From Mycobacteriales bacterium (GTDB lineage: Bacteria; Actinomycetota; Actinomycetes; Mycobacteriales; QHCD01), in assembly GCA_038253135.1 (NCBI GenBank), contig JBBSHJ010000002.1, forward strand, positions 9,217 to 73,216: a stretch of 64,000 nucleotides of DNA, in the 5' to 3' direction. Positions 4,159 to 62,836 of the stretch are shown piece after piece. Within the stretch, counting starts at the first letter, position 1. Every line of letters starts with the position of its first letter. The position numbers and the translations under genes are program-made. The notes under the pieces are model-generated. The model saw nothing but the letters and a program-made list of their open reading frames with translations, ran no database searches and was not told the DNA's origin.

Positions 4159-7068
<2,910 letters not shown>

Positions 7069-7074
7069 GCCCAC

Positions 7075-7247
7075 TCAGTCGATCTGGGGCCCGGGACGGC
7101 TTTCTCGGTCGCTGCGCGCCTCGCTCGTTCCTCGCTCGGGTGCTCGCTCCCTCGTCAGCCGATCTGGCGCCCTGGACGGCTTTCTCGGTCGCTGCGCGCC
7201 TCGCTCGTTCCTCGCTCGGGTGCTCGCTCCCTCGTCAGCCGATCTGG
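7075..7247. repeat. 80-bp tandem repeat, 2 full units (7075-7154, 7155-7234) plus 13 nt, filling the secA / Rv3235-like convergent spacer
   Basis: Direct alignment of the two units shows 3 mismatches. The third partial unit is the 3' end plus TGA of the minus-strand gene. Same family as 9604-9639 and 44291-44396. Confidence 0.9.
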
Positions 7248-7888
7248 AGCTGCACGCACCGCCACCTCCCGTCCAGGCCCTCGAGGCGGGCGGCGACCGC
7301 CCGGTAGCGGGCGCCGTGTCGTACGACGGCCGCCAGCTCGACGATCCCGTCGGCCGGTGTGGTGACGTGCACCGAGCGCAGCGGTGAGGCGGGTACGGCC
7401 GGTCCGCCACGCCGCGCTGGTGCGGGGCGGGCGAGCGGCCAGCTCCGCCGGCTCGCGACCCGCTGCGAGACGCCGTGGAACACCGCGGGGCTCAGCATCG
7501 GCTGCACCTGCGTGATCGACCGGCGCCCGGCAAGCACCTCGATGAGGGCGCGGATGAGCACCCGTCCGAACCGCTCGGGATCCGGCAGGTCGGCCGAGCG
7601 GGTCGGCTGCCGCTCGAAGAATCCGGCGACCCGACTCGCGGTCGCCGGTCGCGCAATCGGTCGCGGCGCTGGGGCGGGATCGTCGAAGGGGAGTGGCTCG
7701 GTCTCCGGCGGGACGAGGTGCAGGTGCCGGTGGCCACCTACCGGCTCGGTGACGAGTGACGGGTGCTCATGCTCGGCCCAGTCGCAGACCGGATCCAGCG
7801 GTGGCTCGAACGGTGCCAGCCGCCGGACCGTCGGCACGCGGGTGAGTGTCGGAGCGGGGCTCATCGGTTCGGTCGCGGCTGCGGACAT
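7235..7888 (-). CDS. Rv3235-like conserved actinobacterial protein
   Basis: 217 aa. Segment FGRVLIRALIEVLAGRRSITQVQPMLSPAVFHGVSQRV resembles the Rv3235 family. Conserved position convergent with secA. Confidence 0.65.
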   Translation of the reverse strand: MSAAATEPMSPAPTLTRVPTVRRLAPFEPPLDPVCDWAEHEHPSLVTEPVGGHRHLHLVPPETEPLPFDDPAPAPRPIARPATASRVAGFFERQPTRSADLPDPERFGRVLIRALIEVLAGRRSITQVQPMLSPAVFHGVSQRVASRRSWPLARPAPARRGGPAVPASPLRSVHVTTPADGIVELAAVVRHGARYRAVAARLEGLDGRWRCVQLQIG

Positions 7889-18358: not shown

Positions 18359-18422
18359 CTGAGGTGGCCTTTGGCTGAGGTGGCCATTGACTGACGTGGC
18401 CGTTGACTGACGTGGCGATTGA
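18359..18422. promoter_or_regulatory. four tandem 16-bp direct repeats (CTGASGTGGCNNTTGR) in the paiB / mocR divergent spacer; candidate operator array
   Basis: Units at 18359-74, 18375-90, 18391-406 and 18407-22 read directly from the sequence. An AT-rich stretch follows at 18427-18455. Confidence 0.5.
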
Positions 18423-18445
18423 CGTGTTCGTTACAGTACAAAACA

Positions 18446-19771: not shown

Positions 19772-22700
19772 CTAGTCCGCGGCCACCTGCACCGGTACGA
19801 CGTGCCGGCGGACCACCAGGACGCCGCGGCCCGGCACCGGGGAGGGGCGCCGGCGGGGCAGCCGCACGCCGAGCAGCTCACCGTCGGCCGGCACCGGCGC
19901 GAGCAACAACCCGGCGCCGGCCTGGCGCAGGGCCGCACCGAGCCCGCGATAGCTGCGGGCGATCCCTTCGCCGTGACCCGCCGCCACCACGAGGACGGCC
20001 CGCGCCTGCATGAGCCCGGTGATCCGCTCGCCGAGCGGGAGGTCCCCGATCAATTCGACGTCGTCGACGAGGATCGCGGCCGGACCGGTCGTGGCGGCCA
20101 GCGCGTCGTCCAGGCGGTCGATCGCGTCGCCGGCACCGGCCGGCACGGTGACGAGCGGGCTGCAGGCGCCGAGCGGCGAGCGGGGTGGTGCGATCACGAC
20201 CACCCGCACGCCCGCGCGGGCGAGCTCGGTGGCGAACCGGGACAGGGCGGTGGACCGGCCGCTGCCCGGCGGACCGGCGATCAGGAACCCCGGCCCGTCG
20301 CCGTCCAGGTCGACCGTGACCGGGTCGGCCGTGTCGCCGCCGAGCCCCAGCACGACCTGCAGCGGGCCGTCCCGGCGAGCGGCCGACAGCGTCCCGGCCG
20401 GAACGCGCTCGGGCAGCGGCACCAGGCGGATCGGGCCGCGGCCGGCGGCCGGCGGGGCCGAGGACTCGGCCAGCGCGCGGAGTGACGCGGCCTGGCTGTG
20501 GCCCGGCGCCGGCGCGAGGATCTGCACCTCGGTGGCCGACTCGGCGAGCAGGCCGCGGCCGGGCGGCAGGTCGATCGGGACCTGCCGGGGGCGGATCCCG
20601 AGCAGGCCGTAGTCGGATCGGTCCGGCAGGGCCAGCGCGATCCGGGTGCCCAGCGTGGTGGGCACCCGAGCGGTGAGCGCGGCGCGATCGCCGGCCACCG
20701 CGACGATGAGGCCGGCACCGGGGCCCTCGCGGATCAGTTTGTGCAGCGACTCGACGGCCGGGCCGGCGTCCAGGCCGTCGTACGCCGCCATGAACCCGTC
20801 CCAGCCATCGAGCAACAGCAGCTGGTACGGCAGGATCGCACCGGTCGCGCGGGCCGCCCGCTGCTCGGCCGGCGACCCGAAGCCGCCGGCCGCGAGCACG
20901 GCCTTGCGGCGGTCGAGCTCGTCGCCGAGCCGGGCGAGCAGGCGCTCGCCGCGGGCGGGGTCCTCGCGGTCGCAGTAGGCGCCGCAGTGCGGCAGGGCCG
21001 TGATCGGGCGGAGCCCGCCGCCGGCGCAGTCGAGCAGGTAGACGTGCAGGTCCTCCGGGCCGAGCCGTCCGGCCGCGGCGATCGCGAGGGTGCGCAGGGC
21101 CGTCGTCCGCCCGGTGCGCGCGGCCCCGGCGATCAGCAGCCCGGTGCCGGCCGCGAGGTCCACCTCGACGGTCGTACGCCGCTGCTCGGCCGGACGGTCG
21201 GCGAGCGCGAACGGCAGCCGCGTCGGCTCCGGCAGGTCACCGGCGGGCATCTCGGCGGCGGGCAGGTCGCGCTCGGTCACGACCCGGGGCAGCGGCGGGA
21301 GCCATGGGCGGCGCGCCCGCGCTGTCGTGCTCGCGCGGATGCGGTCGACCAGATCGGCGAGGTCGGTGCGCCCCGGATCACCGATCCCGGCGTCGGGATC
21401 GGCGCCGGCGCGATCCGGTGGCCAGGCCACCCGGCGTACGTCGACGGAGCGGGACGACCGGCGCCGCAGCGGCGCGCCGACATGGGCCGTTTGGAAGGCG
21501 ACGACGCCCTCGGCCCCGATCCTGGCCACCGCGCGGCCGGGCGTGGCCGCCGAGATCGCGGCGGCGTCGGGACCGTCGATGACGTCCGCGGACTCCGCGG
21601 CGTCGGTGACCCGCAGCGCGATCCGCAGGTTGGTGTTGGCCCGGATCAGCGGCGACACCACGCCTCCGGGACGTTGCGTGGCGAGAACGAGGTGGATGCC
21701 CAGCGACCGGCCGCGCATCGCGATGCCGACCAGCCCGTCCACGAAATCCGGCAGCTCGTCGGCGAGCGTCGCGAACTCGTCGACGACGAGGACGAGCCGG
21801 GGGGGCATCCGCGCTCCGTCCGCGCTGCGGGCCCAGAGGGCGTCGATGTCGGGTACGCCGGCATCGGCGAGGACGCGCTCACGGCGGCGCAGCTCGGCCG
21901 ACAGCGACACGATCGCGCGCTCGGTGAGATGGGGGTCGAGATCGGTCACCATCCCGGCGGTGTGCGGAAGCCGCGCGCAGTCCCGGAAAGCCGCGCCGCC
22001 CTTGTAGTCGATCAGCACGAAGGCCAACCGATCGGGTGCATTGGCGACGGCCAGCGAGGCGATCATGGTCTGCAGCAGCTCGGACTTGCCGGCTCCGGTG
22101 GTGCCGGCGATCAGGACGTGCGGGCCGTGCCGGGCGAGGTCGAGGACGAGCGGCCCGGCGGCCGACTCGCCGAGGACGAAACGCGCACTGGCTCCGGTCG
22201 CGACCGCGTCGCCCGGGAGCGCGCCGAGCAGGTCGAGCAGCCGTGAGCGCGCCGGCAGTCCCCCGCTCTCGTCCGCACCGAGATCGCGCAGCGGGGCGAG
22301 GCGGCGGGCGATCCGCTCCGCCGGTTCCGTCCCCAGCGCGTCGATCGTGACGCCCGCGATCGGGTCCGTGCCGGCGCGGTGCAGGAGCATCTCGCCGCCG
22401 GTCTCCCCCGCGACCACGGCGACCCCTCCGCACGCGGCCGGGAGCACGTTGACGCTGCGGCCCAGGCAGAGGGCGTGGATCCCCACCTCCGGCCCACGCC
22501 GCAGCAGCGTCGCGAAAGCCGGCTCGGCGAGCACCCGGCCCGAGGCGATGACGAGCGTCCGTGGCCCCGGCCACTGCGGGCCCGCCGGTCGGGCCCGCTC
22601 GCGCCCGTCGATGACCCGCAGCATCTCGCCGAGCAGCCGAGCCGATCCGGCGCCATCCCCGGCCACGGCGGGCTCGTCCGCGTCGAGGTGCGGCAGCCAG

Positions 22701-23974
22701 CGCAGCCAGGCCCAGTCCTCCGGCCGGTCGACGAGCACGGCCAGGCCCAGGTCGTCCGGGCTGTGCAGCACCGCGGCCTGGGCGATGAGCGAGCGGGTCA
22801 GCCCCAGCACCGGCCCGGCGGGACCGGCGATGCCGAGCACGCCGCAGTCGACGAGCGGCACGACGACGGGCACGTCGGGCAATACGGGTACGCCGTCCGC
22901 GCGCCCCTCGACGGGCACCCGGGCGGGAAGGTCGGCCGTGCCGATCCGCAGCACCAGCGCGTCGGGGTCGGTCCGCCGCCGCTCCCAGATCCGCTGGGTC
23001 GGGCGGTCCGCGATCCGGCGCAGGACCGCGAGATCCGGTGCCGCGGACCGGCGGGCCCGACGCTCTCGGGTGAGGGCAGCGGCGAGCGCGTCCTCGGCCG
23101 CCGCGGTCGCGGCGGCGTACTCGGCCCGGTCGCGGCGGCGGCCGCGGCGGGCGCCGCGCCGCTCGCTCCAAGCGTTGCCGAGCACCATGACCGGCGAGAG
23201 CAGCATGAACAGCAGGTAGAGCGGCGAGCGCATCCACCAGGCGAGCGCGCCACCGAGGACCAGCGGTGCGAGGGCGCTCACCAGCGGGACCGCCGCGGTG
23301 GTACGCCGCGCGGGCTCGCTCGGGACCACGATCGCGCCGGCATCGCCGGGCCCGGCCAGCCGGGGCGGACGGCGTACCGTCGCCGCCCCGTCGGGCCGCG
23401 CCACCACCGTGGCGGGCGGGTCGTCGGTGCCGGCCACGGTGAGCGTGGTGCGGCCGACGCGGATCCGGGCGTCGGCCGGCACCGGCGTCTCGGTGCCGCC
23501 GGGCAGCCGTACGCCGTCCAACGTGCTGCCGTTGGTCGAGCCCAGGTCCCAGCAGGAGATGCCGTCGGGCTCGGTCAGGATGGCGAGATGCCGGCGGGAG
23601 ACGTCGGGATCGTCGATCACCAGGTCGGCGGTGTGGTCGCGCCCGATCACGACGACCGTGCCCGGTCGCAGGTCCCGGGCCGCGCCGGCGTCCGGGCCGC
23701 CGACCACGAGCAGCGCCAGCACCCCGGCGGGACGGGGGGAGCGCGGGCCGGGCCGGCCGACGCCGAGCAGGCAGCCCGACCTGATCGCGGCGGTGCCGAG
23801 GGCACAGTCGCTGCCGAGCCGGGTCGTGCCGGAGAAGATCGGAGCGCCCGGCCGACCGGCGATCGCCGTCAACCGGCCGGCCACCTCGCCGAGCGTGGCA
23901 CCCGGGGGCGCGTCAATCGTGACATCGCCGGATCCGCCTTCCACGGACGAGACCAGCGTTACGGTGATGCGCAC
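19772..23974 (-). CDS. FHA-domain EssC/EccC-like FtsK/SpoIIIE ATPase with three P-loop domains (type VII secretion-type motor)
   Basis: 1400 aa, GTG start. FHA at aa ~85-180 (VVIGRDHTADLVIDDPDVSRRHLAI..GSTNGSTLDG). Two TM helices at aa ~228-268. Walker A motifs GTTGAGKS, GAARTGRTT and GPPGSGRST. Divergent from a WXG100 gene. Confidence 0.88.
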   Translation of the reverse strand: MRITVTLVSSVEGGSGDVTIDAPPGATLGEVAGRLTAIAGRPGAPIFSGTTRLGSDCALGTAAIRSGCLLGVGRPGPRSPRPAGVLALLVVGGPDAGAARDLRPGTVVVIGRDHTADLVIDDPDVSRRHLAILTEPDGISCWDLGSTNGSTLDGVRLPGGTETPVPADARIRVGRTTLTVAGTDDPPATVVARPDGAATVRRPPRLAGPGDAGAIVVPSEPARRTTAAVPLVSALAPLVLGGALAWWMRSPLYLLFMLLSPVMVLGNAWSERRGARRGRRRDRAEYAAATAAAEDALAAALTRERRARRSAAPDLAVLRRIADRPTQRIWERRRTDPDALVLRIGTADLPARVPVEGRADGVPVLPDVPVVVPLVDCGVLGIAGPAGPVLGLTRSLIAQAAVLHSPDDLGLAVLVDRPEDWAWLRWLPHLDADEPAVAGDGAGSARLLGEMLRVIDGRERARPAGPQWPGPRTLVIASGRVLAEPAFATLLRRGPEVGIHALCLGRSVNVLPAACGGVAVVAGETGGEMLLHRAGTDPIAGVTIDALGTEPAERIARRLAPLRDLGADESGGLPARSRLLDLLGALPGDAVATGASARFVLGESAAGPLVLDLARHGPHVLIAGTTGAGKSELLQTMIASLAVANAPDRLAFVLIDYKGGAAFRDCARLPHTAGMVTDLDPHLTERAIVSLSAELRRRERVLADAGVPDIDALWARSADGARMPPRLVLVVDEFATLADELPDFVDGLVGIAMRGRSLGIHLVLATQRPGGVVSPLIRANTNLRIALRVTDAAESADVIDGPDAAAISAATPGRAVARIGAEGVVAFQTAHVGAPLRRRSSRSVDVRRVAWPPDRAGADPDAGIGDPGRTDLADLVDRIRASTTARARRPWLPPLPRVVTERDLPAAEMPAGDLPEPTRLPFALADRPAEQRRTTVEVDLAAGTGLLIAGAARTGRTTALRTLAIAAAGRLGPEDLHVYLLDCAGGGLRPITALPHCGAYCDREDPARGERLLARLGDELDRRKAVLAAGGFGSPAEQRAARATGAILPYQLLLLDGWDGFMAAYDGLDAGPAVESLHKLIREGPGAGLIVAVAGDRAALTARVPTTLGTRIALALPDRSDYGLLGIRPRQVPIDLPPGRGLLAESATEVQILAPAPGHSQAASLRALAESSAPPAAGRGPIRLVPLPERVPAGTLSAARRDGPLQVVLGLGGDTADPVTVDLDGDGPGFLIAGPPGSGRSTALSRFATELARAGVRVVVIAPPRSPLGACSPLVTVPAGAGDAIDRLDDALAATTGPAAILVDDVELIGDLPLGERITGLMQARAVLVVAAGHGEGIARSYRGLGAALRQAGAGLLLAPVPADGELLGVRLPRRRPSPVPGRGVLVVRRHVVPVQVAAD

Positions 23975-42720: not shown

Positions 42721-43524
42721 TCAGCCGTATACCTGCCGGTGCCGCTGCACCACGGTGGCAACGGTCTGCTCGCCGGGCGCCGACCACACCGACTCGTTGA
42801 AGATCTCGACCTCGACTAAGCCGTCGTACCCGGCCGCGTACGCCGCGTCCACCAGGCCGCGGGTGTCGATGCACCCGTCGCCTACGTGAGCGCGCCCGAG
42901 CAGTGCGCCGGCGGGCAGAGGCGTGATCCAGTCACTGACCTGCACCAGCGCGATCCGACCGGCCGCCCGGGCGATCTCCGGCAGCACCCGCGGGTCCCAC
43001 CACACGTGATAGGTGTCGACGACCACGCCGACCTGCGCGGGCGGATGCGGCGCGGCCAGGTCGATCGCCTGACCCAGCGTCGACACGACACCGCGGTCGG
43101 AACAGAACATCGGGTGCATCGGCTCGACCGCGAGCCGCACGCCCGCGGAGGCGGCGTACGGCGCCAGTGCGGCGATCTCGTCGCGCACTCGGGCCCGCGC
43201 GCCCGCCACGTCCGTGCTGCCGGCGGGAATGCCGCCGCACACCAGCACGAGCACCGGGCAGTCGAGCGCGTGGCATTCCTCGACGGCGCGCCGGTTGTCG
43301 GCCCGGCTGCCATCCGGCACGGTGAAAAAACCGCCCCGGCACAGGCTGGTCACCATCAGGCCGGATGCCCGCACCAGCCCGGCGGCACGGGCGAGGCCCG
43401 TCCCGGCGACGCTGTCGCGCCACAGCCCGACCCCCTCGATTCCCACCTCGGCGCAACCGCGCAGCAGCTCCGGCAGTTGCCAGTGCTTCGTCGTCGCCTG
43501 GTTCAGCGCGAGCGGCGGGATCAT
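42721..43524 (-). CDS. sugar phosphate isomerase/epimerase (xylose-isomerase-like TIM barrel)
   Basis: 267 aa. LAVEPMHP and VDTYHVWWD motifs. Confidence 0.82.
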   Translation of the reverse strand: MIPPLALNQATTKHWQLPELLRGCAEVGIEGVGLWRDSVAGTGLARAAGLVRASGLMVTSLCRGGFFTVPDGSRADNRRAVEECHALDCPVLVLVCGGIPAGSTDVAGARARVRDEIAALAPYAASAGVRLAVEPMHPMFCSDRGVVSTLGQAIDLAAPHPPAQVGVVVDTYHVWWDPRVLPEIARAAGRIALVQVSDWITPLPAGALLGRAHVGDGCIDTRGLVDAAYAAGYDGLVEVEIFNESVWSAPGEQTVATVVQRHRQVYG

Positions 43525-44714
43525 CCGTCGAAACCCGCGCTCACCACGAGCAGGCGCCGCATGCGCTCGGCGGCGAGGTCGGGGTCAGGCAAGAGGCCCG
43601 CGGCATCGGCGAGCCGGAACAGATCCACCAGGTGCGGCACCGAGCGCGCCGACTGCGCAGCGCCGATCATCGTGAAATGGTCCTGGTGCCCGGCCAGCCA
43701 GGCGAGGAAGACGATCCCGGTCTTGTAGTGGTAGGTCGGCGCCTCGAAGCACTTGCGGGCCAGCGGCACCGTCGGCGCGAGGATGCCGTCGTACGCCGTC
43801 CGGTCACCGGAGTCCAGCGCCCGCAGGGCGCTTGCCGCAGCCGTGGCGATCGGGTCGAAGATGCCGAGCAACGCATCGCTGTGACCGGCGGCGTCACCGG
43901 CGATGAGGGCGGGGTAATCGAAATCGTCGCCGGTGTAGCAGCGCACGCCGGCCGGCAGGCGGCGGCGCAGCGCGATCTCCCGATCGGCGTCCAGCAGCGA
44001 GATCTTGATCCCATCGACGACGTCGGCGTGCGACTCGATCAGCTCGACCACGACGTCGGTGGCGGCATCGAGATCGGTCGAGCCCCAGTAGCCCGCCAGC
44101 GCCGGGTCAAACATCGGCCCGAGCCAGTGCAGGATGGCCGGCGCCCGCAGGCCGCCGAGCACCGCGTCATACACCTTGTGGTAGTCGTCCGGCCCGCGAG
44201 CCGCGGCCGCGAGCGCTCGGCTGGCCATCAGGACGACGGTCGCGCCGGCGTCGGTGACGACCGCGACCTGCTCCTCGTAGGCGTGCAGCACGTCGTCGAC
44301 CGACGGAAAACCGTTCTCCCTGCGCGGCCTCCTCAGTCGCTGCGCGCCGCGCTCGTTCCTCGCGCGGGTGCTCGCTCCGTCGTCGACCGACGGAAAGTCG
44401 AGCTGGTCGGTGCCCGCGCCGCACGCGAGGCGACCGCCGACCGATCGCGCGTCCGCGCCGCTGCGCCGGATGAGCTCCCTGGTGCTCGCCCAGTCCAGGC
44501 CCATCCCGCGCTGGGCGGTGTCCATCGCGTCGGCGACACCGAGGCCGAGTGACCACAGGTGGGCACGAAAGGCCAGGGTCGCGTCCCAGTCGAGCGCGGC
44601 CGGCGCGCCGGCGGAGCGGTCGGCGAGCGGATCGGCGACGACGTGCGCGGCGGCGTAGGCGACCCGTGACACCGGTGCTGTCGCGCCGGTCGGTACGGGC
44701 AGCGGGTCGCGCAT
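43521..44714 (-). CDS. DUF993 family protein, carrying an in-frame 29-codon repeat-element insertion
   Basis: ATG 44714. AMDTAQRGMGLDW region recalled as DUF993. Usual partner of Gfo/Idh/MocA and TIM-barrel isomerase genes. ATGA overlap with the downstream gene. Confidence 0.65.
   Translation of the reverse strand: MRDPLPVPTGATAPVSRVAYAAAHVVADPLADRSAGAPAALDWDATLAFRAHLWSLGLGVADAMDTAQRGMGLDWASTRELIRRSGADARSVGGRLACGAGTDQLDFPSVDDGASTRARNERGAQRLRRPRRENGFPSVDDVLHAYEEQVAVVTDAGATVVLMASRALAAAARGPDDYHKVYDAVLGGLRAPAILHWLGPMFDPALAGYWGSTDLDAATDVVVELIESHADVVDGIKISLLDADREIALRRRLPAGVRCYTGDDFDYPALIAGDAAGHSDALLGIFDPIATAAASALRALDSGDRTAYDGILAPTVPLARKCFEAPTYHYKTGIVFLAWLAGHQDHFTMIGAAQSARSVPHLVDLFRLADAAGLLPDPDLAAERMRRLLVVSAGFDG
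44291..44396. repeat. copy of the 80-87-bp repeat family inside the DUF993 CDS: 68-nt core flanked by perfect 19-bp direct repeats
   Basis: CGTCGTCGACCGACGGAAA occurs at 44291-44309 and 44378-44396 (spacing 87 nt = 29 codons). The core aligns with units at 7075-7247. The shared peptide ASTRARNERGAQR appears in the ORF track at both loci. Confidence 0.85.
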
Positions 44715-44752
44715 CCGGACCGGTTCGCGCACCCCCGGCAGCCGGATCAGCG

Positions 44753-45904
44753 TCACAGCCTGAGGTCCGGAACGGCCAGCCGCCGGCCGGTGCGCGCCGA
44801 CTCCATTCCCAGCTCGGCGAGCTGCACGCCCCTGGCGCCTGCCAGCAGGTCCCACGCAAACGGGGTGTCGTCGACGACCGCGCGCAGGAACATCTCCCAT
44901 TGCACCCGGAAGCCGTTGTCGAATTCGGCGTTGTCGGGCACCTCCTGCCACTGCGACCGGAAATCGATCGGCGAGGGCAGGTCGGGGTCCCATACCGGTT
45001 TCGGCGTCGCGGACCGGTGCTGCGCGCGGCACCGCCGGAGCCCGGCGACCGCGCTCCCCTCGGTCCCATCGACCTGGAATTCGACCAGCTCGTCCCGGAA
45101 AACCCTGGTCGCCCAGGAGGAATTGATCTGCGCGACGATGCCGCCGTCGAGTTCGAAGATCGCGTACGCCGTGTCGTCCGCGGTGGCGTCGTACGCCTCG
45201 CCCTGCTCGTCGTACCGCACCGGAATGGCCGTCGACGTGTGCGCATAGACGGACCGGACCGGGGCGATGGTCTGGTCGAGGACGTAGCGCCAGTGGCAGA
45301 ACATGTCCTTGGTGATGCCGCCGCCGACCTCGGCCCGGTAGTTCCACGACGGCCGCTGGGCCTCCTGCCAGTCACCTTCGAAAACCCAGTAGCCGAAATC
45401 CCCGCGCACCGACACGATCCGGCCGAAGAATTTCCCCTCGACCAGGCGCTTGAGTTTCCGTAGGCCGGGCAGGAAGATCTTGTCCTGCACGACGCCGGTG
45501 ATGACGCCGGCATCGGCGGCCGCGCGGGCGAGCTCGACGGCCGCCTCCGTGGTCTCGGCCACCGGCTTCTCGGTGTAGACATGCTTTCCGGCCTTGATGG
45601 CACGGCTGATCGCGTCGGCGCGGGCACCGGTGACCTGCGCGTCGAAATAGACCCCGACGTCCTCGCGGCCGAGTGCTTCATCGAGATCCGTGGTCCATTC
45701 CGTCAGGCCGTGCCGCTCGGCCATGTCCCGGAGTTTCCGCTCGCTCCGCCCGATGAGGATCGGATCGGGGATCAGGCGCCGCCCGTCGGTGAGCGGCAGA
45801 CCACCGGATTCACGGATGGCCAGGATCGAGCGGATGAGGTGCTGGCGGTATCCCATCCGACCCGTGACACCATTCATCGCGATCCCGACCCTGCAGATGT
45901 CCAC
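44753..45904 (-). CDS. Gfo/Idh/MocA family oxidoreductase
   Basis: GTG 45904 after GGAGGA. N-terminal Rossmann RVGIAMNGVTGRMG. Confidence 0.88.
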   Translation of the reverse strand: MDICRVGIAMNGVTGRMGYRQHLIRSILAIRESGGLPLTDGRRLIPDPILIGRSERKLRDMAERHGLTEWTTDLDEALGREDVGVYFDAQVTGARADAISRAIKAGKHVYTEKPVAETTEAAVELARAAADAGVITGVVQDKIFLPGLRKLKRLVEGKFFGRIVSVRGDFGYWVFEGDWQEAQRPSWNYRAEVGGGITKDMFCHWRYVLDQTIAPVRSVYAHTSTAIPVRYDEQGEAYDATADDTAYAIFELDGGIVAQINSSWATRVFRDELVEFQVDGTEGSAVAGLRRCRAQHRSATPKPVWDPDLPSPIDFRSQWQEVPDNAEFDNGFRVQWEMFLRAVVDDTPFAWDLLAGARGVQLAELGMESARTGRRLAVPDLRL

Positions 45905-49504: not shown

Positions 49505-51043
49505 ATGCAGCGGTACGACGCCATCGTGGTCGGCGGAGGCCACAACGGCCTCACGGCGGCGGCCTACCTGGCCTCGGCGGGCCGCTCGGTCCTCGTCCTC
49601 GAGGCGGCCGACCACACGGGCGGGGCGGCCGTCTCGGCGCCGGTCTTTACCGGCGTGGATGCGCGGCTGTCCCGCTACGCGTATCTGGTGTCGTTGCTGC
49701 CGCAGCGGATCGTCTCCGACCTCGGCCTGCGGATCTCCTTGCGGCGCCGGAGATTCTCGTCCTACACGCCGGTTCCCGGCTCCGCCACCGGCCTGCTGAT
49801 CGACAATGCTGACCCGGCTGCGACCGGTAGGTCGTTCGCGGCGGTGACCGGGTCGGACGCCGACTTCGCCGCGTGGCAACGGTTTTCTGCGATGACCGGT
49901 CGGCTCGCGGCGCGGATGTTTCCGACCATGCTGGATCCGTTGAAATCCCGCGACGAAATGCGCACGATCGTCGACGACCCGATCGCGTGGAACGGGCTGC
50001 TGGAGGAACCGATCGGGTCGAGCATTCGCACCACCTTCGCCGACGACACCGTGCGCGGCGTCGTGGCGACCGACGCCCTGATCGGCACCTTCACGTCGGT
50101 GGATGATCCCTCGCTGCTGGCCAATCGGTGCTTTCTCTACCACGTCATCGGCGGCGGCACCGGCGGGTGGGACGTGCCGGTCGGTGGCATGGGCGCTGTG
50201 ACGGACGCTCTTGCGGACGCCGCGCGAGCCGCCGGGGTACGCATCGAGACCGGTGCCGAAGTCGTGTCGATCGACCCCGACGGTGAGGTGCGGTGGATCG
50301 CCGGAGAGTCCGAGCAGCGCGCGGCTTTCGGCCACCTGCTCGGCGCGATCGCACCACAGATCCTGGACCGGCTGCTCGGCGATGCGCCGGCCGGGCCGCG
50401 CCCCGAAGGTGCCCAGCTCAAGGTCAACATGCTGCTGTCGCACCTTCCGCGGCTGGCCGATCCCTCGGTCGATCCGGCGGCCGCCTTCGGCGGGACGTTC
50501 CATGTCAATGAGGGGCTGTCCGCGCTGGAGGCATCGTACGCCGGGGCGGCACGCGGCGAGCCGCCCGCAGTACCGCCGTGCGAGAGCTATGGCCACTCGT
50601 TGACCGACCCGTCGATCCTCGGACCGGAGCTGGCGAGGTCCGGCGCGCACACCCTCACCCTCTTCGGGCTGCACCAGCCGGCGCGGCTGTTTGCCAAGGA
50701 CAATCCCGCCGCGCGGGCCGCGGCGCTCGCCGCGACGCTGGACTCGCTGGATGCCGTGCTCGGCGAGCCGATCCGGGACTGCCTGCTCACCGACGCGGAC
50801 GGCCGGCCGTGCCTGGAGGCGCGCACTCCGCTGGATCTGGAACGCGAGATCGGGCTACCCGGCGGGCACATCTTCCATCGCGATCTCTCCTGGCCGTTTG
50901 CCGAAGCCGATGCCGACATCGGGCGGTGGGGGGTCGAGACGGCGTACACCAACGTGCTCCTGGCCGGCGCCGGCGCCCGGCGCGGCGGCGGGGTGAGCGG
51001 GATTCCCGGTCACAACGCGGCGATGGCGGTCCTGCGGACCTGA
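49505..51043 (+). CDS. NAD(P)/FAD-dependent oxidoreductase (phytoene-desaturase/CrtI-like family)
   Basis: ATG 49505. Dinucleotide fold YDAIVVGGGHNGLTAAAYLA. Confidence 0.85.
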   Translation: MQRYDAIVVGGGHNGLTAAAYLASAGRSVLVLEAADHTGGAAVSAPVFTGVDARLSRYAYLVSLLPQRIVSDLGLRISLRRRRFSSYTPVPGSATGLLIDNADPAATGRSFAAVTGSDADFAAWQRFSAMTGRLAARMFPTMLDPLKSRDEMRTIVDDPIAWNGLLEEPIGSSIRTTFADDTVRGVVATDALIGTFTSVDDPSLLANRCFLYHVIGGGTGGWDVPVGGMGAVTDALADAARAAGVRIETGAEVVSIDPDGEVRWIAGESEQRAAFGHLLGAIAPQILDRLLGDAPAGPRPEGAQLKVNMLLSHLPRLADPSVDPAAAFGGTFHVNEGLSALEASYAGAARGEPPAVPPCESYGHSLTDPSILGPELARSGAHTLTLFGLHQPARLFAKDNPAARAAALAATLDSLDAVLGEPIRDCLLTDADGRPCLEARTPLDLEREIGLPGGHIFHRDLSWPFAEADADIGRWGVETAYTNVLLAGAGARRGGGVSGIPGHNAAMAVLRT

Positions 51044-51200
51044 TGCGGGGCCGCGCCGGTCCCGTCAAAGTCTCGATGGAAACCGTCTGCGCCCGCACCG
51101 CCCACCCAGCCGGTGACCGCGGTGCCGAAATGCGCGAGACCGGCCGGATCCTTGGTGTCCAGCGCGACCAGGGCGAAGCGAGCGATTCCCCTCAGCGACC

Positions 51201-51268
51201 TCCGAAACTCCTGGCACTCCGAAACTCCTGGCACTCCGAATCTCCTGGCACTCCGAATCTCCTGGCAC
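51201..51268. repeat. 17-bp tandem repeat x4 (TCCGAAWCTCCTGGCAC)
   Basis: Units at 51201-17, 51218-34, 51235-51 and 51252-68. The first two carry AAA and the last two AAT. Lies in a convergent spacer. Confidence 0.9.
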
Positions 51269-51289
51269 CTCCGAGCCCGCGGCCCTGAG

Positions 51290-58589: not shown

Positions 58590-59501
58590 TCAGCTCGGCA
58601 GCGGCGCGCGGTCGGTCAGCGTCGCCGCGTGCAGATCACCCAGATCGTCGACGCGGTCGAGGACGTCGGGTGCGGTGAAGGACGGCCGGCCGCCGCGCTC
58701 CACCTCCTCCCACGTCAATGGTGCGGACGCGGTCGGCGTGGCCCGGGCCCGCAACGAGTAGACCGACACCGTGGTCTTTGCCGCGTTGTTCTTGCTCCAG
58801 TCGATGAAGACCTTGCCGGGGCGCAGTTTCTTCGCCATCGCCGAGACGATCAGCCTCGGATGCTCGGCCGCGAGCCGGTCGGCCACCCGCTTCGCGTAGC
58901 TCGACGTCGCGCCGCCGGGCGCCTCCTCGATCGGGATCGAGAGCTGCATCCCCTTGGAGCCGCTGGTCTTCGGGTAGGCCGTGAGCCCGCCCACCGCGAG
59001 CGCCTCGCGCAGCAGTACCGCGACCTCGCAGCACTGCTCGATCGTCGCCGGCGGCCCGGGGTCGAGATCGAAGACCAGCAGGTCGGCGCCGTGCGCCCCG
59101 CCGCGGGGGCCGATCGCCCACTGCGGGGTGTGCAGTTCGAGGGCGGCGAGGTTGGCCAGCCACACCAGCGTCGGCAGGTCCTGCACCACGACGAAATCGA
59201 TGGTCTCGCGGTCCATGGTGCTGCCCGGGACCGGCAGGGTCACCGTCCGCACCCAGTCCGGTGTGTGCGACGGCGCATTCTTCTCGAAGAAATGGTGACC
59301 CTCGACGCCATTCGGATAGCGCTTGACCGTCAGCGGGCGGGCGGCCAGATGAGGCAACAGCACCGGCGCGATGCGGGTGTAATAGTCGATGACCTCGCCC
59401 TTGGTAAAGCCGGTTTCGGGATAGAGCACCTTTTCGACATTCGTCAGCTTCAGCTGCCGGTCCCCGACCTTGACCCGGACGGATGTCGATTCCTTGGCCA
59501 C
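58590..59501 (-). CDS. ligD: non-homologous end-joining LigD polymerase/primase domain protein
   Basis: GTG 59501 after GAGAGGGGG. LTNVEKVLYPETGFTKGEVIDYY, DLDPG and KTSGSKGMQL motifs. Confidence 0.9.
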   Translation of the reverse strand: MAKESTSVRVKVGDRQLKLTNVEKVLYPETGFTKGEVIDYYTRIAPVLLPHLAARPLTVKRYPNGVEGHHFFEKNAPSHTPDWVRTVTLPVPGSTMDRETIDFVVVQDLPTLVWLANLAALELHTPQWAIGPRGGAHGADLLVFDLDPGPPATIEQCCEVAVLLREALAVGGLTAYPKTSGSKGMQLSIPIEEAPGGATSSYAKRVADRLAAEHPRLIVSAMAKKLRPGKVFIDWSKNNAAKTTVSVYSLRARATPTASAPLTWEEVERGGRPSFTAPDVLDRVDDLGDLHAATLTDRAPLPS

Positions 59502-59517
59502 GATGTCCCCCTCTCTT

Positions 59518-60459
59518 TCAGGCTTGGTCTTCCCGCACCACGTCGCGCGGGTCCTTGTCGTCGCGTACGCCGCGGAAGGTCGGGTGCCGCAACCGGTGGG
59601 TCGGCGTCCACTCGACGTACTGCACATCCACGACCACAGCCGGCGCGCACCACTGCACGTTGGCCAGCTCGGCTCGAGTCATCTCCCCGGAGAACGGGCA
59701 AACCTCCTGCTCCAGGGGACCAACCAGCCGTTGTAGCCGGCCCAGCATCGCGTCGGTAAATCCCGTCCCGACCTGCCCGGCGTACCGCAGCGCCCCGTCC
59801 CCGCCGTGGTAGCCGATCGACAACGACCCGATCCGGCCGGTGCGCCCGCCCCCGCCGCGCTCGTAGCCGCCGACCACGAACGCCTGCCGTCGGGTGAGGC
59901 GGGACTTCACCCACTCCGGGCTCCGCACACCCGGCCGGTATCCCGACGTCAACCGCTTGGCGACGACACCCTCCAGGCCCTGCGCCTTGCTGGCGCCCAT
60001 CGTCGCGGGCCCGTCGTCGAGACTCGGTGGCACGGCCCACGACGGGCCGTCCAGGCCCAGGCGCTCGAGCGTCCTGCGCCGCTCGGTGTACGGCCGCTTG
60101 GTGAGATCGACGCCGTACAGCCGGACGACGTCGAAGATCAGGTAGGTCACGGGCGTCCCGGCGGCGAGCCGGCGCGCCTTCTCGGCGCTGCGGCAGTGCA
60201 TCCGGGGCTGCAGCGCGGCGAAGCTCGGCCGGCCGTCGGCGAAGGCCACGATCTCGCCGTCGAGCAGCGCGTCGGGACACGCGTCGGCGAGCCCCCAGAG
60301 TTCGGGGTACGCCGCGGTGATCGGCCGCTCCGTGCGGCTGGTCATCTGCATCCCGTCGGTGGTGAGATCGGCCACCGCGCGCACGCCGTCCCATTTGAAC
60401 TCGAAGGCCCAGCCGTCCCCGGTCGGCAGCGTGCCGGCGGTGGCGAGCATCGGCTTCAC
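59518..60459 (-). CDS. ligD: ATP-dependent DNA ligase (LigD ligase domain protein)
   Basis: MKPMLAT..WAFEFKWDGVRA adenylation motif I (KxDG). Confidence 0.9.
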   Translation of the reverse strand: MKPMLATAGTLPTGDGWAFEFKWDGVRAVADLTTDGMQMTSRTERPITAAYPELWGLADACPDALLDGEIVAFADGRPSFAALQPRMHCRSAEKARRLAAGTPVTYLIFDVVRLYGVDLTKRPYTERRRTLERLGLDGPSWAVPPSLDDGPATMGASKAQGLEGVVAKRLTSGYRPGVRSPEWVKSRLTRRQAFVVGGYERGGGGRTGRIGSLSIGYHGGDGALRYAGQVGTGFTDAMLGRLQRLVGPLEQEVCPFSGEMTRAELANVQWCAPAVVVDVQYVEWTPTHRLRHPTFRGVRDDKDPRDVVREDQA

Positions 60460-60555
60460 ACGCCCATCCTGCCCATGACCGGCCGGTCAAGGCACCCAGG
60501 TATCGGACTAACAGACCGGCGGGACAAAATCCGGTGCGGATGGGACGCTTGGGCA

Positions 60556-61578
60556 ATGCGAGCCATTTGGAAGGGTGCGGTCTCGTTCGGCCTGGTCAGC
60601 ATCCCGGTGCGGCTGTACTCCGCCACGGAGGAGCGCGACGTCGCGTTTCACCAGGTGCACCGGGAAGACGCGGGCCGGATCCGATACAAGCGGGTCTGCT
60701 CGATCGATGGCGAGGAGGTGCCCTACGCGGACATCGCCAAGGGTTATGAGCTGCCGAGCGGGGACACTGTTGTCATCACGGACGACGACCTGGCCGACCT
60801 GCCGCTGTCGACGAGCCGCGAGGTCGATGTGCTCGCGTTCGTGCCGCTGGAGCAGGTGGACCCGATCTATTTCGCCAAGAGTTACTACCTCGAGCCCGAC
60901 AACAACGCGGCCAAGCCCTATGTCCTGCTGCGGGATGCGCTCGAGCAGTCCGGCCGGGTCGCGCTGGTCAAGGTTGCGTTGCGCCAACGCGAGGCGCTGG
61001 CCACCCTTCGGACCCGCGACGGCGTCCTCGTGCTCGAGACGATGGTGTGGCCGGACGAGGTCCGTGCTCCGGAGTTCGGCTTCCTCGACGAGGACGTGAC
61101 GGTCCGCCCGGCCGAGCTCTCGATGGCCGAGTCGCTGATCGAGAGCATGACCGGCGACTTCGCGCCCGAGGATTACAAGGACGACTACCGCGAGGCGCTG
61201 CAGGCGGTCATCGATGCCAAGGTCGAGGGCCGTGAGGTGGTCGCCGCCGAGGAGGCGGAGGAGACCGGTGCGGGTGACGTCGTCGACCTGATGGCCGCTC
61301 TGCGGCGCAGTGTCAACGACGCGAAGCGGCGCCGGGGCGAGGCCGTCGACGACCAGGACAACACCGACGAGGACGACGCCGCAGGCGCACCGGCCGCCAA
61401 GCGGTCCTCGCCTGGCGCCCGGAAGGCGCCGGCGAAGAAGACCGCGAAGAAGGCGGCCAAGAAGCCGCCGGCGAAGAAGGCCGCCCAGGACAAGAATCCG
61501 GCCGCCAAACAGGCTGCGGCCAAGCGGGCAACTCCGCGCAAACGTTCGGCCGCCAAGGCCGAACGCAAGAGCGCCTGA
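60556..61578 (+). CDS. ku: Ku protein with lysine/alanine-rich C-terminal tail
   Basis: ATG 60556. MRAIWKGAVSFGLVSIPVRLYSAT. C-terminal AKKTAKKAAKKPPAKKAA tail. Confidence 0.95.
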   Translation: MRAIWKGAVSFGLVSIPVRLYSATEERDVAFHQVHREDAGRIRYKRVCSIDGEEVPYADIAKGYELPSGDTVVITDDDLADLPLSTSREVDVLAFVPLEQVDPIYFAKSYYLEPDNNAAKPYVLLRDALEQSGRVALVKVALRQREALATLRTRDGVLVLETMVWPDEVRAPEFGFLDEDVTVRPAELSMAESLIESMTGDFAPEDYKDDYREALQAVIDAKVEGREVVAAEEAEETGAGDVVDLMAALRRSVNDAKRRRGEAVDDQDNTDEDDAAGAPAAKRSSPGARKAPAKKTAKKAAKKPPAKKAAQDKNPAAKQAAAKRATPRKRSAAKAERKSA

Positions 61579-62688: not shown

Positions 62689-62710
62689 GCCGGCGTCGTC
62701 AGACGCCGGC
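62689..62710. terminator. 9-bp perfect GC-rich stem with 4-nt loop between the convergent hydrolase gene and the ECF operon (candidate bidirectional terminator)
   Basis: GCCGGCGTC (62689-62697) pairs with GACGCCGGC (62702-62710), loop GTCA. The stop of the repeat ORF lies in the loop. Confidence 0.45.
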
Positions 62711-62836
62711 GGTGCTCATTGCCGCCTCCGCGGAAACGAGTGCGTCGGCGGTGCTCATTGCCGCCTCCGCGGAAAGGAGTGCGTCGGCGGTGCTCATTGC
62801 CGCCTCCGCGGAAAGGAGTGCGTCGGCGGTGCTCAC
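62699..62836 (-). repeat. 39-bp tandem repeat, 3 full units plus a 21-nt truncated unit, each with SD + ATG + 13 codons (possible small repeat-peptide ORF)
   Basis: Minus strand reads VSTADALLSAEAA / MSTADALLSAEAA / MSTADALVSAEAA / MSTAGV stop. GGAGG lies 5 nt before each ATG. The first GTG overlaps the upstream stop (GTGA). Confidence 0.9.

Follow-up and report, generated by a model that had tools for sequence, protein, structure and literature searches.

A lineage-specific, in-frame insertion in a DUF993 gene and its probable origin as a short MIRU-like repeat

Within a 64-kb stretch of DNA from a Mycobacteriales bacterium (the whole stretch analysed here, hereafter the window), a gene of the DUF993 family carries a segment that is bracketed by two perfect 19-bp direct repeats, resembles repeat units lying in the spacer next to secA, and is nevertheless read through by the host gene. 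This raises the question of whether the segment was inserted into the gene, and, if so, what kind of element it is, how it may have been joined to its target, and what the encoded protein has made of it.

The insert within the DUF993 gene

The locus consists of the following features, given in the direction of the gene.

43521-44756, minus strand: DUF993 gene, encoding a DHDPS-like TIM barrel (PF06187, E 1.3e-173, full-length)
44378-44396, minus strand: upstream copy, in gene direction, of the duplicated 19-nt target; it reads TTTCCGTCGGTCGACGACG on the coding strand and encodes the first FPSVDD
44310-44377, minus strand: 68-nt core of the inserted repeat, encoding GASTRARNERGAQRLRRPRRENG
44291-44309, minus strand: gene-downstream copy of the 19-nt target duplication, encoding the second FPSVDD

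With up to two mismatches allowed, the 19-mer CGTCGTCGACCGACGGAAA has exactly two matches in the 64-kb window, at 44291-44309 and 44378-44396, which confirms the repeats described in the initial annotation; two or more matches were reached in 0 of 100 shuffles. The copies start 87 nt, i.e., 29 codons, apart, and the insertion comprises the 68-bp core and the 19-bp target duplication, 87 bp in total. Since 68 + 19 = 87 nt makes 29 codons and the frame is free of stops, the reading frame of the gene remains open, and its translational coupling to the next gene is retained. The minus-strand ORF is read through as ..GTDQLD-FPSVDD-GASTRARNERGAQRLRRPRRENG-FPSVDD-VLHAYEEQ.., with the duplicated FPSVDD bracketing the segment and neither frameshift nor stop, just as had been claimed; one of the two other sense frames of the core does carry a stop. 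Peptides spanning the two junctions would read ...DDGASTR... and ...ENGFPSVDDVLH..., respectively. The 19-nt target itself holds a small hairpin-forming palindrome, CGTCG-GTCGA-CGACG.

Two gene calls exist for DUF993 (P0001, P0121), of 411 aa from 44756 and 397 aa from 44714. The stop codon of the gene overlaps the start of the downstream AP_endonuc_2 (xylose-isomerase-like) gene, so that a frameshift in DUF993 would uncouple the next gene too. The window protein retains 151 of the 155 columns that are invariant among 17 orthologs, and one of the four exceptions is a matter of the called start codon only. Judged from its sequence, DUF993 is still an intact gene despite the insert.

The 17 orthologs, drawn from Kitasatospora, Streptomyces, Pseudonocardia, Actinoalloteichus and Mycobacteriales MAGs (64-71% identity), all show a gap of 27-29 columns at exactly the insert site when aligned with the window protein, and the loop stretch covered by the 19-nt target is present in a single copy in DUF993 orthologs. 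The length of this loop, taken as the stretch from GTDQL to AYEEQ, was measured in 119 orthologs. It is 10-13 residues in 117 of them, 20 and 22 residues in the other two (P0099, P0074), and 39 residues in the window protein, where subtraction of the 29 residues leaves 10, a normal ortholog length. The 29-residue segment is present in none of the 119 orthologs, nor in the crystal structure 4DNH (SMc04132, 55% identical). P0074 was considered as an independent copy of the element and rejected, its 10 extra loop residues coming without a duplication and without clear homology to the element. Among DNA sequences, the nearest available relative is a Logan contig (~79% identity), which aligns on both sides of the insert, the alignment breaking exactly at 44279-44401.

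The identical insertion is found in three non-identical assemblies, namely the window, GCA_051003115.1 (34 SNPs relative to the window over 18,858 nt, including one that lies 8 nt from the insert) and Logan SRR24807095 (10 SNPs over 18,313 nt). As these assemblies agree without being identical, the insertion is not an assembly artefact; as the three genomes are at least 99.8% identical, they are too close for the insertion to be dated. The 87-bp segment is a lineage-specific insertion into DUF993. The alternatives, that the segment is ancestral, that it arose by local duplication within the gene, or that it is an artefact after all, have a negligible probability in our judgement. The loop does vary in length and carries 8-10 extra residues in P0099 and P0074, but an ancestral segment is not expected to be missing from every one of the 119 orthologs and from 4DNH, a local duplication would not explain why only 19 nt are duplicated while the 68 nt enclosed by them share homology with intergenic units 37 kb distant, and an artefact is at odds with the agreement of the assemblies.

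In the AlphaFold2 model of the window protein (mean pLDDT 74), residues 111-133, which correspond to the insert, have a pLDDT below 50 and form the sole long stretch of low confidence. The insert sits between a strand (96-100, followed by the invariant GTDQ) and a helix (139-155). Foldseek matched the model to 4DNH with a TM of 0.85, the next matches being dihydrodipicolinate synthases. According to the model, the insert extends a variable beta-alpha loop on the catalytic face of the barrel, directly after the invariant GTDQ, and the same loop is poorly conserved and length-variable among orthologs. The 29 extra residues are Arg/Glu-rich and predicted to be disordered. The locus therefore presents a conserved TIM-barrel enzyme that tolerates a 29-residue, predicted-disordered insert beside an invariant motif of its active-site face.

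Such a position invites the idea that the insert has been co-opted, the Arg/Glu-rich loop by GTDQ giving the enzyme a new property, e.g., in binding or regulation. In the three genomes sampled from this lineage the insert is fixed, it lies on the catalytic face just after the invariant motif, and three of the seven differences between its core and the units near secA are synonymous in this frame, toward G/C-ending codons. However, fixation says little among three genomes that are more than 99.8% identical, the segment is predicted to be disordered, nothing similar occurs in any ortholog, and the perfect 19-nt flanks argue for a young event. We consider co-option very unlikely.

Related units in the secA spacer

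The units to which the core had been aligned lie 37 kb from the DUF993 locus, between secA and a convergent gene.

4159-7068, plus strand: secA, from ORF and translation, convergent with the DUF6459 gene
7069-7074: original 6-nt spacer, following the secA stop at 7066-7068
7075-7154, minus strand: second repeat unit, made up of a 67-nt core (7088-7154) and a 13-nt target copy that carries one mismatch (7075-7087)
7155-7234, minus strand: gene-proximal repeat unit, made up of a 67-nt core (7168-7234) and an exact copy of the 13-nt target (7155-7167)
7235-7247, minus strand: native 13-nt target CCAGATCGGCTGA, comprising the final codons of DUF6459 and its stop
7235-7888, minus strand: DUF6459 gene (PF20060, E 8e-29, the match extending to the final residue), which hosts the copies anchored at its stop codon

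The alignment holds. A 36-mer from the core occurs, with at most three mismatches, in three places only in the window (DUF993 and the two secA units) where none is expected, and an nhmmer profile of the three copies recovers each with an E of ~1e-20 (1.8e-20 for the DUF993 core) and nothing else in the window. Homology between the loci covers 60 nt, from GAGCGAGCACCC through CAGGG, and 53 of the 60 aligned nucleotides are identical (88%), leaving seven differences. The ends vary: the secA units have five extra bases (CGAGG) at the gene-upstream end compared with the DUF993 copy, and at the other end AGAACGGT in the DUF993 copy stands against CG or CC in the secA units. Relative to its minus-strand host gene, every copy is in sense orientation. 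The peptide GASTRARNERGAQR, translated at the DUF993 locus, is encoded also in one frame of the secA-spacer array, and at the triplet homologous to the TGA of DUF6459 the DUF993 copy has CGA, out of frame. Orientation, peptide and triplet are as the initial annotation had given them; its other factual statements were likewise confirmed, and its reading of the segment is in essence upheld.

Absent from that annotation was the observation that the secA units, too, are flanked by duplications of their native target, here the 13 nt of the DUF6459 3' end. Read on the minus strand, the spacer consists of the gene end CCAGATCGGCTGA, a 67-nt core, CCAGATCGGCTGA, a second 67-nt core, CCAGATCGACTGA, GTGGGC and the secA stop. 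Without its two 80-nt units it would measure 6 nt, which means that it grew from 6 nt to 166 nt. The array begins directly after the DUF6459 stop and holds 2.2 copies in the sense orientation; the neighbouring genes are convergent and do not form an operon. Short-read contigs break at this array, one of them ending 17 nt into the element. No promoter-like sites were found in the spacer, and a lone terminator-like match falls inside secA, outside the spacer.

The secA gene is 83% nucleotide-identical to its counterparts in two Mycobacteriales MAGs (L004 and L005), in which the spacers of the same gene pair measure 32 and 97 nt and contain no element. The gene end CAGATCGGCTGA is common to the window and both MAGs, and as it occurs in these relatives without the element, the 13-mer is a duplicated native target. 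Its duplication left the C-terminus and stop of DUF6459 itself preserved. At the level of sequence, the DUF993 and secA loci share one anatomy, that of a core flanked by a duplicated target of 19 and 13 nt, respectively. The doubling of the secA copy to two 80-nt units (67 + 13) would have its simplest explanation in slippage, or in unequal exchange, between the direct repeats on either side, and may alternatively reflect a second insertion into the regenerated target.

The element had been described as not palindromic, and this is borne out. No terminal inverted repeats were found, and the folds of two isolated cores are not significantly different from shuffles (z +1.07 and -0.20). The only nominally significant fold (z -2.4) is that of a 106-nt plus-strand segment which includes both target copies, and its outer stem is the pairing of these two copies with each other. 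A putative conserved hairpin, CCGNGC-GAGGAACGA-GCGNGG, was rejected because it folds no better than shuffles; within it, tandem G.A mismatches become G-C pairs through two A-to-C differences, both of which are synonymous (CGA to CGC) in the DUF993 frame. A target-site preference, TCGGnnGACGA by eye, was also rejected, the alignment of the two native targets being no better than 40% of random pairs.

The 19-nt flanks of the DUF993 copy are identical while its core differs by 12% from the secA units, which places the donor outside the window, and a donor outside the window is the main argument that further copies exist or existed. With 7 differences in 60 nt, the divergence between the DUF993 copy and the secA units is too great for the former to be a recent copy of the latter. 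The part of the lineage's genome that was searched, ~70 kb, contains the two loci, and to call the repeat a family on the strength of two loci is an extrapolation. No copy was found in the 5.5 kb beyond the window in a sister MAG or in ~37 kb from relatives. The exact core pattern had no match in the GTDB species representatives (one genome per prokaryotic species), nor in JGI metagenomes or viral contigs, and these distribution searches required near-exact matches and are therefore insensitive. Six metagenome matches of a shorter 22-mer were dismissed as chance, there being no similarity in their flanks. No match to the element was obtained by blastn against plasmid and phage collections, or in Rfam at the gathering threshold or at E up to 10, and a search of the literature for core sequence strings gave nothing relevant. 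Six-frame peptides had no match among 5.8 billion proteins, in a search whose second run missed even the window protein, with its 23-residue exact match, so that this negative carries no weight as regards other in-frame copies.

Possible routes of insertion

There are, then, two independent insertions with the same core and the same orientation to the host gene, each accompanied by a direct duplication of the native target (13 and 19 nt). The explanation we favour, and hold to be fairly probable, is that one unit of a short, non-palindromic, MIRU-like repeat was inserted into DUF993 with duplication of its target and was tolerated in frame. Staggered nicks followed by fill-in are the usual origin of target duplications. 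In the present case the target would have been opened by nicks staggered by ~13-19 nt, the core joined, and the overhangs filled in, and the agent may have been a trans-acting activity or host repair, not a transposase recognising inverted ends. By the same process the core would have landed exactly at the DUF6459 stop codon, duplicating the last 13 nt of that gene. Survival in frame would then reflect selection against frameshifting insertions without any special property on the part of the element. Slippage between the perfect 19-nt repeats might also remove the insert precisely.

No transposase, integrase or reverse transcriptase is present among the window genes examined. The window does encode a set of genes for NHEJ, consisting of Ku, an ATP-dependent ligase and a LigD primase-polymerase. 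Imprecise joining, such as template switching or the attachment of a defined DNA species by host end joining, fits better than a classical transposase, given the unequal duplications, the variable junction nucleotides, the lack of inverted ends and the lack of a mobilising gene in view. The differing duplication lengths and core ends look less like precise transposition.

The same features could be taken further, to a one-off act of DNA repair in which a break or stalled fork at the quasi-palindromic DUF993 target copied or captured a unit of an existing array by end joining or template switching, and fill-in produced the 19-nt duplication. The full NHEJ set, the hairpin-forming palindrome inside the 19-nt target, the duplication lengths and junction nucleotides that differ between the loci, and the want of inverted ends and of a mobilising gene all sit well with such an event. 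Random capture, however, does not predict nearly the same core boundaries at two independent loci, and the secA array was not the recent template, since the core is 7/60 off its units while the 19-nt flanks are identical; copying guided by homology is unsupported, as the native targets are not significantly similar. We regard a one-off repair event as a possible but rather unlikely source of the insert.

To our knowledge, the dispersal of MIRU-like units in actinobacterial genomes has never been settled. MIRU units are the basis of tuberculosis strain typing. It is a doubtful proposition that MIRU-type units are, or recently were, mobile elements that lack inverted ends and duplicate 13-19 bp of their target. 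As candidate routes, a transcript or a defined DNA species might be copied in by target priming, or the target might be cut with a stagger in the manner of an integrase. If this were true, the two loci would provide the first clean junctions showing the spread of such units, coding sequence included. Two loci do not establish a new mechanism, though, and under the favoured reading, the insertion of a single repeat unit with target duplication, the event is a well-documented case of a known phenomenon, in which a small dispersed repeat is tolerated in frame in a loop. It is unusual in that the target duplications are long and of unequal length, and in that the element lacks any symmetry. Two sites at which the pre-insertion state can be reconstructed to the base, with duplications of this length, nonetheless constitute a concrete mechanistic clue.

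Comparison with known repeats

Small elements that duplicate their target and at times lie in frame are known from several bacterial groups. MITEs and comparable small repeats that occur fused to ORFs, namely BOX, RUP, SPRITE and cyanobacterial elements, share with the present repeat their small size, non-autonomous nature, target duplications and occasional in-frame position (PMC3184786, PMC10969869). MITEs are characterised by terminal inverted repeats and usually by a short duplication whose fixed length is set by the transposase (PMC3184786, PMC10969869), whereas the present repeat lacks inverted ends and its duplications are long and differ in length.

The initial annotation had drawn a parallel with Rickettsia palindromic elements. 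This parallel stands for the outcome, i.e., an in-frame repeat that leaves the host ORF open and adds a peptide where one is tolerated (Ogata et al. 2000, cited in PMC3184786). It does not stand for the kind of element, as the repeat described here has no dyad symmetry, no significant fold and no sequence relationship to the Rickettsia elements, and is nearest to MIRU units.

Mycobacterial MIRUs (Supply et al. 1997; PMC3184786, PMC2734929) are non-palindromic units of 40-100 bp. They are found at ~40 loci, in tandem arrays that share the orientation of the neighbouring genes and abut or overlap a stop codon, and their copy number varies between strains. Sites filled in one species may be empty in another, and filled sites are reported to have direct repeats of 4 nt at their flanks (PMC3184786). 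In the rnc-fpg1 spacer, for example, repeats account for 279-358 bp in the M. tuberculosis complex, compared with a spacer of 6-20 bp in most other mycobacteria and 54 bp in M. leprae (PMC3184786; PMC2734929). MIRU292, a 53-nt unit of M. avium subsp. paratuberculosis (Table 1 of PMC7977185), aligns over its full length with the DUF993 core; the alignment scores 37, and 40 of its 53 columns are identical. Not one of 50,000 random 68-nt window segments reached this score against MIRU292 (maximum 32), and the three other M. avium tandem repeats of the same table scored 12-22 against the core. A score of 37 was, however, also attained by 14 of 5,000 dinucleotide-shuffled versions of the core, and the secA units scored 19 with MIRU292, which is not significant (p ~0.29). 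The block common to the core and MIRU292 is GCGCAGCGA(C)TGAGGAGG, with GCGCAG and CGCG-CGA motifs on its flanks, and the sense strand of the MIRU matches the strand that codes for the host genes here. On these alignments the element is possibly homologous to mycobacterial MIRU units and at most a candidate member of them; on the whole we take it to be MIRU-like and probably related to them.

The arrangement of the copies can be set beside that of MIRUs in the same way. The host belongs to the Mycobacteriales, the element is non-palindromic with a core of 67-68 nt and periods of 80 and 87 nt, a gene-oriented tandem array at a stop codon fills an otherwise tiny spacer, and filled and empty sites can be compared between relatives. 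It departs from MIRUs in its flanking duplications, 13 and 19 nt as opposed to 4 nt (PMC3184786), and in that one copy lies within a coding sequence, in frame. Taken on sequence and arrangement, the closest described relatives of the element are the mycobacterial MIRU units and not the Rickettsia palindromic elements.

Differences between the two cores and loop length in DUF993 orthologs

The element's core in the DUF993 gene (44310-44377) and that of the secA-spacer unit beside the DUF6459 gene (7168-7234) differ at seven positions. Two of these differences are changes from A to C that mirror each other in CCGNGC-GAGGAACGA-GCGNGG and put G-C pairs in place of tandem G.A mismatches. Because both are also synonymous in the DUF993 frame (CGA-to-CGC), structure and codon usage are inseparable as the cause of these changes.

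The loop that holds the insert is also longer in two DUF993 orthologs, by 10 residues in P0074 (L015 652-1827) and by 8 in P0099. The extra loop DNA of P0074 has neither a flanking duplication nor clear similarity to the MIRU-like element. The extra peptide of P0099 looks like a local duplication (SLSDITA/ALSEVAD).

Tandem arrays and clustered differences

Besides the secA-spacer units, the window has these short tandem arrays:

62707-62835, period 39 nt, 3.3 copies, 98% matches, inside minus-strand ORF 62699-62836
51200-51274, 17 nt, 4.4 copies, CTCCGAAACTCCTGGCA
18359-18423, 16 nt, 4.1 copies, CTGACGTGGCCATTGA

The last two are unrelated to the MIRU-like element. The 39-nt repeat makes up nearly all of the 45 codons of its ORF, in which VSTADALLSAEAAM is read three times, and which has a hydrolase gene on one side and a gene for an ECF sigma factor on the other. 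The gene calls of the sister MAG include this ORF, and one Logan contig terminates within the array.

Half of the window's differences from GCA_051003115.1, a MAG of the same lineage (17 of 34), fall within 157 nt (50104-50260) of an FAD-dependent oxidase gene, a cluster that looks like a recombination tract or hypervariable patch.

End-joining locus and FHA/FtsK protein

A full non-homologous end-joining locus, comprising a LigD primase-polymerase, an ATP-dependent DNA ligase and Ku, occupies 58590-61578, and a further minus-strand gene encodes an FHA/FtsK protein:

59518-60459, minus, ATP-dependent DNA ligase of the end-joining locus
60556-61578, plus, Ku of the end-joining locus
19772-23974, minus, protein of 1400 residues combining FtsK/SpoIIIE ATPase domains with an FHA domain

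The last of these is similar to an EccC-type secretion ATPase.
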